A stretch of 5,498 bases of DNA. Source: a virus (lineage: Duplodnaviria; Heunggongvirae; Uroviricota; Caudoviricetes). Positions 2,876 through 5,498 of this stretch are shown here, one piece after another. A program made the translations under genes and the position numbers. The stretch lies in the IMG/VR virus record IMGVR_UViG_2695420705_000018; one strand, 5' to 3'. Below the pieces are notes generated by a model that saw only the letters and a program-made list of their open reading frames with translations, did no database searches and was not told the DNA's origin. Every line of letters begins with the position of its first letter. Within the stretch, counting starts at the first letter, position 1.

Positions 2876-4272
2876 TCATCCTCTCCGGATAAGGCACGGG
2901 CGTAATCTGCCAGTGTTTTCTTGTTGGTTGCTGCACCATCCTCTTCCTGCAGGCTCGCCAGCAGCGCACTGAGATCCAGCTGCCAGCGGGAAATACTGAT
3001 GCGCAGCGCCGCCAGCGCATAAACGAAGCAGTCGAGTGCCTCATTGCGTCGCTTTTTGCTGTCCCACAGTATTTTTTTCCTGCCATCCACCCATTTTTCG
3101 ACCTGCTCTTCAGCCGTCAGCTGCTGCGCTTCGGTCAGATCAAAAATATCCGGGTTATTCGGGAAGTGAACGGCACCGGGAAGCGGTTCATCCCCTTCCG
3201 GCGTCAGTGTGAAGCGGTTATAAATCTGCTCTTTCGCGGTATCCGTACCGATTTCGGTAAGGTAAACCCCGTTTTTGTTTCGCTTACGTGGCATGCTGGC
3301 CACCGGCTTTCCGTAGACGGATGCCCCTTTAATGGGGATCACCCGGAACAGCCCATGTTTTTTCGAGCGTTCATACACAATGGTCGGGTCAATCCCGCCA
3401 GTATCCCAGCAGATACGGGATATCGACATTTCTGCACCATTCCGGCGGGTATAGGTTTTATTGATGGCCTCATCCACACGCAGCAGCGTCTGTTCATCGT
3501 CGTGGCGGCCCATAATAATCTGCCGGTCAATCAGCCAGCTTTCCTCACCCGGCCCCCATCCCCATACGCGCATTTCGTAGCGGTCCAGCTGGGAGTCGAT
3601 ACCGGCGGTCAGGTAAGCCACACGGTCAGGAACGGGCGCTGAATAATGCTCTTTCCGCTCTGCCATCACTTCAGCATCCGGACGTTCGCCAATTTTCGCC
3701 TCCCACGTCTCACCGAGCGTGGTGTTTACGAAGGTTTTACGTTTTCCCGTATCCCCTTTCGTTTTCATCCAGTCTTTGACAATCTGCACCCAGGTGGTGA
3801 ACGGGCTGTACGCTGTCCAGATGTGAAAGGTCACACTGTCAGGTGGCTCAATCTCTTCACCGGATGACGAAAACCAGAGAATGCCATCACGGGTCCAGAT
3901 CCCGGTCTTTTCGCAGATATAACGGGCATCAGTAAAGTCCAGCTCCTGCTGGCGGATGACGCAGGCATTATGCTCGCAGAGATAAAACACGCTGGAGGGG
4001 TCATCCGGCGTCCATTTGAGGCCAAACGGCGTCTCTTTGTCGCCAAATTTAAGATACTGCTCCTCCCCGCAATGCGGGCAGGCAACATGAAAACGCATAA
4101 AATGCGGGGATTCACTGGCTGCACGCTCAATCTGACAGGTGCCTCTCACTTTTGGCGTGGAGCCACGGATGGACTTTGGCCAGACCGAGCCTTCAATACG
4201 CTTGTCACCCAGGAACGTCGGAGAGCCTTCCTGTTCAATATCATCATCAAAAGCAGCAAGTTCATCATAACC
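2872..4272 (-). pseudogene. A: Terminase large subunit (lambda gpA-like), 3' fragment of about 466 codons; 5' part removed by the IS66-family insertion at 4272/4273. The longest start-bounded ORF is 2872..4149 (GTG).
   Basis: The 425-aa track ORF ends ...[16 protein letters not shown], as I recall for the gpA C-terminus, and begins VRGTCQIERAASESPHFMRFHVACPHCGEEQYL. The same frame stays terminase-like upstream of the GTG (...YGYDELAAFDDDIEQEGSPTFLGDKRIEGSVWPKSIRGSTPK) up to 4272, where similarity stops at the IS terminus. About 175 N-terminal codons, including the region expected to hold the Walker A ATPase motif, are therefore missing from this locus. Confidence 0.88.
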
Positions 4273-4302
4273 GTAAGCGACTCGTCAGAACCGTATTGAT
4301 AT
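4273..4302. repeat. Presumed terminal inverted repeat (right end) of the IS66-family element; inner boundary approximate
   Basis: 30-bp non-coding segment between the IS terminus (GTAAGCGACTCGTCAGAACCGTATTGATAT read from the outside in) and the tnpC stop. The partner repeat is outside the window, so the extent cannot be confirmed. Confidence 0.5.
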
Positions 4303-5498
4303 TTACTGAGAGCTCAGATCAACTTTCCAGGGCAACAGATCGCGTACCCGGTTTGCCGGCCAGTCCTGGATATGTTCAATGACGTAACGCAGCCACTTTT
4401 CTGGCTCCACATTGTTCAGACGGCATGTGCCGATCAGCGAGTACAACACCGCCGCATGTTCACCACCGCTGTCGGAACCCGCGAACATCCAGTTTTTCCG
4501 GCCTACGGCCACTCCCCGTAAGGCGTTCTCTGCGATGTTGTTGTCGATTTCCACCCAGCCATTACTGCAGTACACGTTCAGTGCATCCCACTGTTTCAGC
4601 AGGTATGCGAACGCTTTTGCCGTATCTGAGTGACGCGACAGTGTTTTCATCTGTTGCTGTATCCAGTCATACAGTGACTGCATCAGTGGCGCGGCTCTGG
4701 CTTTTCTTGCCGCCAGACGCTGTTCTGCTGAACAGCCCCGGACCTCTGCCTCGATGGCATACAGTTCACCGATACGCTGCAGGGCTTCCGTGGTGATGTA
4801 GGTGGGCGCTCTTGCATGCACATCGTGGATTTTTCTCCGGGCATGAGCCATACACGCGACTTCCGTTATTCTGCCGGATTCGTATAACGCCCGGTAACCA
4901 CCGTAAGCATCGGCCTGAAGCACACCGCTGTAACCGGCCAGGTGATTTTGTGGATGGATACCTTTCCGGTCCGGACTGTACGCGAACCAGACCGCCGGGG
5001 GCATCTGTGAACCGGCGTTACGGTCATCACGGACGTAGACCCACAGCCGGGCTGTCCGGGTTTTACCGCTGCCCGGCTCCTGGACCGGGACGGGGATATC
5101 ATCAGCATGGACTTTACCGGGCATCAGCACATACTGGCGCAGGACGTCATACAGCGGCTCCAGCAGTTCAGCAACAGCACCTGTCCAGCGCCCCAGTGTG
5201 GCACGGCTCAGCTCCACTCCCTGACGACGGTATATTTCTGACTGGCGGTATAACGGCAGATGGTCTGCATATTTCCCGGTGACAACATGGGCCAGAAGCC
5301 CCGCTCCGGCATAACTGCGTGCAATGGGTTTTGAAGGTACTGGTGCCTGCACGATATGGTCGCACCGGCAACAGGCCTGTTTCGGACGTTGTGTTTCGAT
5401 AACCTTAAAGGCGCTGCTGATAAGCTCCAGTTGCTCTGACACATCACATCCCAGAGAACTGAGTTCACCACCACAGGCAGGACAGCATTCCTCTTCCG
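4303..5498 (-). CDS. tnpC: IS66-family transposase TnpC, C-terminal ~398 codons; N-terminus beyond the window
   Basis: Minus-strand frame is open from the window edge to TAA at 4305..4303. Translation ...[47 protein letters not shown]... carries the paired CxxC zinc-binding motif, followed by a core ([28 protein letters not shown]...[14 protein letters not shown]...[47 protein letters not shown]) typical of IS66/ISEc8-type TnpC. The GTG at 5442 used by the ORF track is probably not the true start. Confidence 0.9.

Follow-up and report, generated by a model that had tools for sequence, protein, structure and literature searches.

Very probable loss of its own terminase by an Escherichia coli lambda-type prophage through insertion of an ISCro1-like IS66 element in gene A

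Introduction

Among the closest described cases is prophage Sp4 of E. coli O157:H7 Sakai, in which the terminase small-subunit gene nu1 is disrupted by an insertion sequence (IS). Sp4 was reported to have no intact packaging enzyme, yet its DNA is packaged; the most likely source of the terminase is the co-resident prophage Sp14, which has a near-identical cos (PMC2669165). The Walker A, Walker B and catalytic glutamate motifs of the phage lambda terminase large subunit (TerL) are established, and all changes of E179 are lethal (PMC6379665). The assignment of functions to the N- and C-terminal pieces of TerL used below follows a published domain layout (PMC9026076). ISCro1 in ST131 has been given as 2,824 bp, which is longer than the related copies measured in this work (PMC8764528).

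Here we analyse a 5,498-nt stretch of tailed-phage DNA, referred to as the window (IMG/VR record IMGVR_UViG_2695420705_000018). It very probably records the insertion of an ISCro1-like IS66 element (about 2.7 kb, tnpA-tnpB-tnpC) in gene A of an E. coli lambda-type prophage that has thereby lost its own terminase.

Results and Discussion

Gene organization of the window

The minus strand carries every gene in the list of open reading frames, and the order and overlaps of A', W, B and C are the same as in lambda. The features of the window are as follows.

1..1090, minus strand: gene C (S49 head protease/scaffold), codons 1-363 of 439, running off the window start
about 376, minus strand: expected start of Nu3, nested in C, at C codon 239 by lambda coordinates
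1071..2672, minus strand: gene B, lambda-family portal protein, 533 aa, intact (PF05136, Phage_portal_2, E=2.9e-97)
2669..2875, minus strand: gene W (head-tail joining, gpW), 68 aa, intact (PF02831, E=5.8e-38)
2872..4272, minus strand: A', truncated terminase large-subunit gene, codons 176-641 and stop (2872-2874)
4265..4272, minus strand: predicted 8-bp copy of the target-site duplication, GGTTATGA on the gene strand and TCATAACC on the plus strand
4273..4302, minus strand: right (tnpC-side) terminal 30 nt of the IS, non-coding, an imperfect terminal inverted repeat starting GTAAGCG
4303..5498, minus strand: tnpC, IS66-family DDE transposase, residues 127-523 and stop, with its 5' end beyond the window

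The start codon of W overlaps the stop codon of A in the sequence ATGA. Exact matches to the B protein are recorded for 7953 blocks of the assembly collection. The frame of gene C contains no stops, and its residues are identical at 361 of 363 positions to those of an intact relative (L009) and at 358 of 363 to lambda C. The original prediction held that the head genes W, B, C and Nu3 are intact, which is borne out for W and B over their whole length and for C over its first 363 of 439 codons, C and Nu3 lying only partly within the window. A search for internal repeats across the window returned just short chance matches.

The junction between gene A and the insertion sequence

The minus-strand A' frame is open from its stop codon (2872-2874) to position 4272. 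Window positions 3900-4272 are 100% identical over 373 nt to nt 1236-1608 of lambda (J02459), and lambda A occupies 711-2636 in that record; codon 176 thus starts at base 4272, and the number of missing codons is exactly 175. At this point intact genes read ...CATAACC/CGCCACATCC and the window reads ...CATAACC/GTAAGCGACTCGTCAGAACC, or, in a longer view, ...TTCATCATAACC/CGCCACATCCACCGAC in the intact homologues and ...TTCATCATAACC/GTAAGCGACTCGTCAGAACCGTATTG in the window. The right end of the IS at window 4273 is GTAAGCGACTCGTCAGAACCGTAT (starting GTAAGCGACTCG...). The terminus GTAAGCG(A/G)CTCGTCAGAACCGTATTGATATTTACTGAGAG bounds three other copies of the IS in different flanks, being identical to that of the window in two of them (L002 and L006) and one base different in the third (L001), which makes the boundary at 4272/4273 exact. 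The earlier claim that the A frame is intact up to 4272 and then gives way to an IS66-type terminus and tnpC is thus correct to the base, as judged both from the alignment to intact genes and from the three IS copies.

Since tnpC and A' share a reading frame, a tnpC-A' fusion protein was considered and rejected: the tnpC stop (4303-4305) and an in-frame TGA (4285-4287) inside the terminal repeat separate the two.

The junction is absent from 5,426 complete E. coli genomes, and a 40-nt query across it found no match among GTDB representatives, in IMG/VR or in the JGI metagenomes. Two of the complete-genome records match the full length of the query used there (H1 and H2), and both represent different insertions. 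One related locus (L003) ends 122 nt short of the junction, with 8 mismatches.

The truncated terminase large subunit

The 466 codons of A' encode a protein 100% identical to residues 176-641 of intact 641-aa homologues. In the intact homologue, the Walker A motif (KSARVGYS) occupies residues 76-83, and the Walker B motif with the catalytic glutamate (VAGYDE) residues 174-179, the same motifs as those of lambda TerL. The break falls between A175 and G176, inside Walker B (V-A/G-Y-D-E179). Codons 1-175 take with them the small-subunit (TerS)-binding region, Walker A and the first two Walker B residues, and A' still encodes the catalytic Glu179 and the C-terminal half of the ATPase domain, along with the complete nuclease domain and the C-terminus that binds the portal. 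It had been estimated beforehand that about 175 N-terminal codons are absent, Walker A and the part that binds the small subunit among them; this is confirmed, the number being exactly 175 by the lambda alignment. In agreement, A' matches only positions 135-237 of the 247-position Pfam GpA_ATPase profile, compared with 3-237 for the intact homologue, and the nuclease domain is recognized in A' with high significance (GpA_nuclease, PF20454, E=6.6e-75). As a candidate TerL, A' thus lacks the N-terminal ASCE packaging ATPase as a complete domain and retains the C-terminal endonuclease and the A-W-B-C synteny. Judged from its sequence, A' is a truncated member of the lambda-type TerL family and would be non-functional as such.

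Another reading of the same frame is that this terminase homologue is naturally short, starting near 4149-4272 with the IS just upstream. An open reading frame with a GTG start at 4149 (codon 217) does exist, and gene callers give 425-, 408- and 372-aa versions of the protein in other assemblies. That GTG, which is the origin of the left limit of the interval first flagged, is the first in-frame start of the truncated frame and not the real gene start; the frame is open to the IS end with no start codon before 4149, and no Shine-Dalgarno sequence was found at the candidate A' starts. The short calls in the fetched contigs either adjoin a separately called upstream piece of A or start at or near a contig end, and one of them follows the IS (L024). 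A natural start near 4149..4272 had been set as the finding that would count against an insertion within the gene, and it failed on the ATPase profile, which is matched only from position 135 as against 3 in the intact protein. Together with the identity of A' to residues 176-641 of 641-aa proteins and to lambda A DNA, this leaves a naturally short terminase with next to no chance of being right, and it was rejected.

Gene A is also split into two calls without an IS in many public assemblies (for example 216+425, 220+408 and 249+372 aa; L004, L005, L013, L015, L016-L019, L023, L026-L028 and L031). Two of these (L013 and L015) have many split genes and look error-rich; others may carry real frameshift pseudogenes. 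In a further contig (L025, Logan SRR22309300_0), positions 1-118 are the reverse complement of A just upstream of codon 176, head-to-head with A and with no IS there; this start is probably a palindromic assembly artefact.

The IS66-family element

The tnpC frame, which ends with the stop at 4303-4305, is open through 5496 and encodes 397 residues in the window. Its product contains the Pfam domains PF03050 (DDE_Tnp_IS66, E=3e-103), PF13005 (zf-IS66) and PF13817 (IS66_C), and scores 457 bits against the NCBIfam equivalog NF033517 (IS66 family transposase), for which the cutoff is 180. The match to IS66 transposases is not a chance resemblance. The possibility that 4273..5498 might be something other than an IS terminus plus transposase was thereby addressed directly, and the domains, the NF033517 match and the shared GTAAGCG terminus all identify it as such.

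The IS part of the window (1226 nt) is 100% identical to copies in E. coli E275a, which PGAP names 'IS66-like element ISCro1 family transposase'; the name used here comes from that annotation of identical copies. Members of the IS66 family have imperfect terminal inverted repeats beginning 5'-GTAA, and the right end of this type is seen in the window; the left end is GTAACCG(T/G)CTCATTTAAACCGTCT in complete sister copies, that of the window copy lying beyond the window. Of the 8-bp duplication typical of IS66, one flank falls within the window, and three sister copies have 8-bp duplications. The sister copies, which are 98.5-98.7% identical over the visible part, also contain tnpA and tnpB, genes that would lie beyond 5498 in the window copy. 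The IS of the window is in the same orientation as the late operon.

The element is abundant in E. coli. It is found at a coverage of at least 80% in 1,602 of 5,426 complete genomes and at up to 34 places per genome, with 11-14 in the chromosomes of the O26 and O103 strains listed.

Sister insertions in nu1 and A

Three other loci contain the same IS in the nu1-A region of related prophages, each as a clean simple insertion with tnpA-tnpB-tnpC and an 8-bp duplication.

L001, locus positions 2565-5262: IS of 2698 bp in nu1 codons 150-153, duplication CCTGAAAC, same orientation as the late operon
L002, locus positions 6797-9500: IS of 2704 bp in A codons 35-37, duplication GATGCTAA, same orientation as the late operon
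L006, locus positions 2932-5630: IS of 2699 bp in A codons 252-255, duplication CGACAAAG, opposite to the late operon

The pieces of the split genes in these cases are annotated by PGAP as partial pseudogenes.

The far side of the insertion

A simple insertion at 4272/4273 would have duplicated the 8 bp GGTTATGA and left an N-terminal product consisting of A(1-177), one glutamate and a stop, that is, a protein of 178 aa ending ...VDVAGYE-stop. The TAA that would stop this upstream A fragment is supplied by the GTAA of the IS ends. The predicted product (P0001) was built before any look-up, and an exact match was then found in a collection of 15 billion proteins, on four Logan contigs, the longest of 1432 nt; the match is one of protein alone and is not tied to the strain of the window. 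Where the DNA is out of reach, an exact protein look-up can test a prediction of the far-side product that was made blind. A search for the far junction by DNA pattern gave no matches. The expected order on the far side would be tnpB, tnpA, the left end ...GACGGTTAC, TCATAACC, then CGCCACATCCACC... (A codons 175 down to 1), nu1 and cos. The proposal that the 5' part of A lies beyond the IS thus concerns DNA outside the window and has indirect support, from the exact 178-aa product and the three simple sister insertions.

The IS could alternatively mark a rearrangement, a deletion or inversion through recombination between IS copies that followed the insertion or took its place, after which the 5' part of A, nu1 and cos would no longer adjoin. 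An element present at up to 34 places in a genome offers many substrates for homologous recombination, the far side is beyond the window, and in another contig with the same junction (L024) the prophage homology is broken again inside gene E. Nevertheless, the product expected of an unrearranged far side, A(1-177) followed by glutamate and a stop, occurs exactly on four contigs, and the three sister insertions in this module are all simple, with an 8-bp duplication in every case. A rearrangement is thus unlikely, and a simple insertion is the reading followed below.

The same junction in a metagenome contig and the question of a preferred target

Positions 1-4412 of a metagenome contig (ENA ERZ27259216 k141_29417; L024) correspond to window 1-4412 and contain the same junction between IS and A, with an identical 140-nt IS end; the junction also occurs in four similar places. 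The two sequences differ by 77 mismatches in 4412 nt. The A allele of the contig differs from that of the window at +20, +29, +62, +65, +71 and +119 from the junction, is identical over the next ~1 kb and is mosaic after that.

This contig bears on whether the junction might be an assembly artefact, a chimera joining a prophage to a repeated IS. The window ends inside a multi-copy IS, its source was not recovered, and short-read assemblers often mis-join at repeats. Against this, the break is exactly at a biological IS terminus, GTAAGCG, and not at an arbitrary shared k-mer, an identical junction is present in an independent assembly (L024 and the four similar places), and a matching far-side product exists. 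The independent junction and the break at a true IS terminus rule out a chimera for practical purposes, and we regard an artefact as highly improbable; the junction is accordingly treated as a genuine insertion.

The contig also shows an identical junction beside two A alleles, with six differences within 120 nt. Either the same site was hit twice, or gene conversion ending at the IS came after a single old insertion. In addition, no fewer than three other independent insertions of this IS are located within 830 bp of A175/G176. The A175/G176 site, or the nu1-A region generally, might on these grounds be a preferred target of ISCro1-like elements, which, if true, could reflect repeated insertion at one site or selection favouring terminase knock-outs, by which the prophage is domesticated. 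The IS occupies about 13,440 places in the 5,426 complete genomes, only two of which have the end of this IS within ~900 nt of this part of A. Two genomes compare with about 10 expected for uniform insertion in a target of ~2.5 kb, a rough estimate that ignores phylogenetic non-independence and shows no regional enrichment; a preferred target is therefore considered quite improbable.

Beyond the part shared with the window, the lambda-type homology of L024 (positions 5284-11541) extends 91 codons into the major capsid gene E and breaks off there. The genes that come next, for an integrase, an AlpA-like protein, DUF4222 and a D5_N/DUF5906 primase, look like a P4- or PICI-like island. The island could be an element integrated in the prophage, or the metagenome contig could be chimeric.

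Relatives of the prophage and age of the insertion

The prophage part of the window differs from the intact relatives L007, L009 and L012 by three substitutions, with no indels, in 4272 nt, and from lambda (J02459) by 8 mismatches in the same 4272 nt (A', W, B and C). The proteins of A' and B are 100% identical to those of the intact relatives. Among the complete-genome matches listed, the top ones, at 99.9% identity, include Shiga toxin-producing E. coli (STEC) O103:H2, O111:H2 and O121.

The three substitutions, at window positions 2580 (synonymous, in B), 1036 (P19S in C) and 859 (V78I in C), are private to the window with respect to every related fetched locus that spans the site (15, 20 and 29 sequences, respectively). 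With numbers this small, relaxed selection is indistinguishable from noise or sequencing error.

The insertion would be recent on the scale of the divergence between this prophage and its intact relatives. No decay is seen in the visible genes, which supports the view, put forward at the outset, of a recent inactivation rather than long decay for the visible part, where there are three substitutions and no indels and the IS part matches other copies at 100% identity. A recent knock-out of the prophage's own terminase is well supported.

Consequences for the terminase, packaging and transcription

The IS splits the ATPase domain, setting the TerS-binding N-terminus and Walker A apart from Glu179, the nuclease and the portal-binding end. 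The 3' fragment has neither a start codon nor a ribosome-binding site and is probably not made. By analogy with lambda genetics, no functional TerL would be expected from this locus, with a resulting loss of packaging: the prophage should be unable to cut cos or to package its own DNA, though the genes for portal, W and protease are intact.

Rescue could come from the terminase of another lambda-type prophage in the same host that shares its cos/Nu1 specificity, or from recombination with such a prophage. Genomes that carry the head module of the window have up to 8 matching places, which makes a helper prophage plausible. The description of the prophage as packaging-defective, as initially suggested, consequently applies to its own terminase and does not hold as an absolute, since a helper prophage can supply terminase, as in Sakai Sp4 (PMC2669165).

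The IS had also been expected to be polar on late transcription. On the gene strand, the visible part of the IS showed neither a terminator-like site nor an outward promoter. Late transcription in lambda-type phages is antiterminated by Q and reads through terminators, and with no terminator-like site in the visible IS, polarity is doubtful. It might be speculated that translation of W suffers, if it is coupled to that of A through the ATGA overlap.

For annotation, it would be appropriate to record the prophage as incapable of producing its own terminase and to treat the two pieces of A as one pseudogene and not as two genes. The prophage should not be assumed to be immobile, as in strains with several prophages, which include many STEC, the terminase of a neighbour or recombination may mobilise or repair it. 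The finding has little importance beyond annotation.

Comparison with known systems

In relation to phage lambda, whose gene A encodes TerL (gpA, 641 aa), the window is without codons 1-175 on the visible side of the IS. The nearest relatives of the prophage are those of STEC O103, O111 and O121 (3 mismatches), rather than lambda itself (8).

The IS has the same zf-IS66, DDE_Tnp_IS66 and IS66_C domains and the same GTAAGCG terminus as the ISCro1/IS679-type members of the IS66 family, and presumably resembles IS679 (2704 bp). Complete sister copies of this type are 2698-2704 bp long, with tnpA-tnpB-tnpC and 8-bp duplications, whereas the window holds only the last 1226 nt. The sister ISCro1-like insertions (CFSAN018748, TW10828 and GCA_025988625.1) place the same IS in nu1 or A of near-identical prophages; the sites differ from that of the window, and one sister copy is in the opposite orientation.

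Sakai Sp4 is, like the prophage of the window, a lambda-like prophage in which the terminase has been knocked out by an IS and other genes remain. There the small-subunit gene nu1 was hit, and here the large-subunit gene A, at codon 175/176. The Sp4 insert is described just as 'an IS insertion' (PMC2669165). With an IS in the terminase gene of a lambda-like prophage already in the literature (PMC2669165), the event in the window is of an ordinary and known kind.
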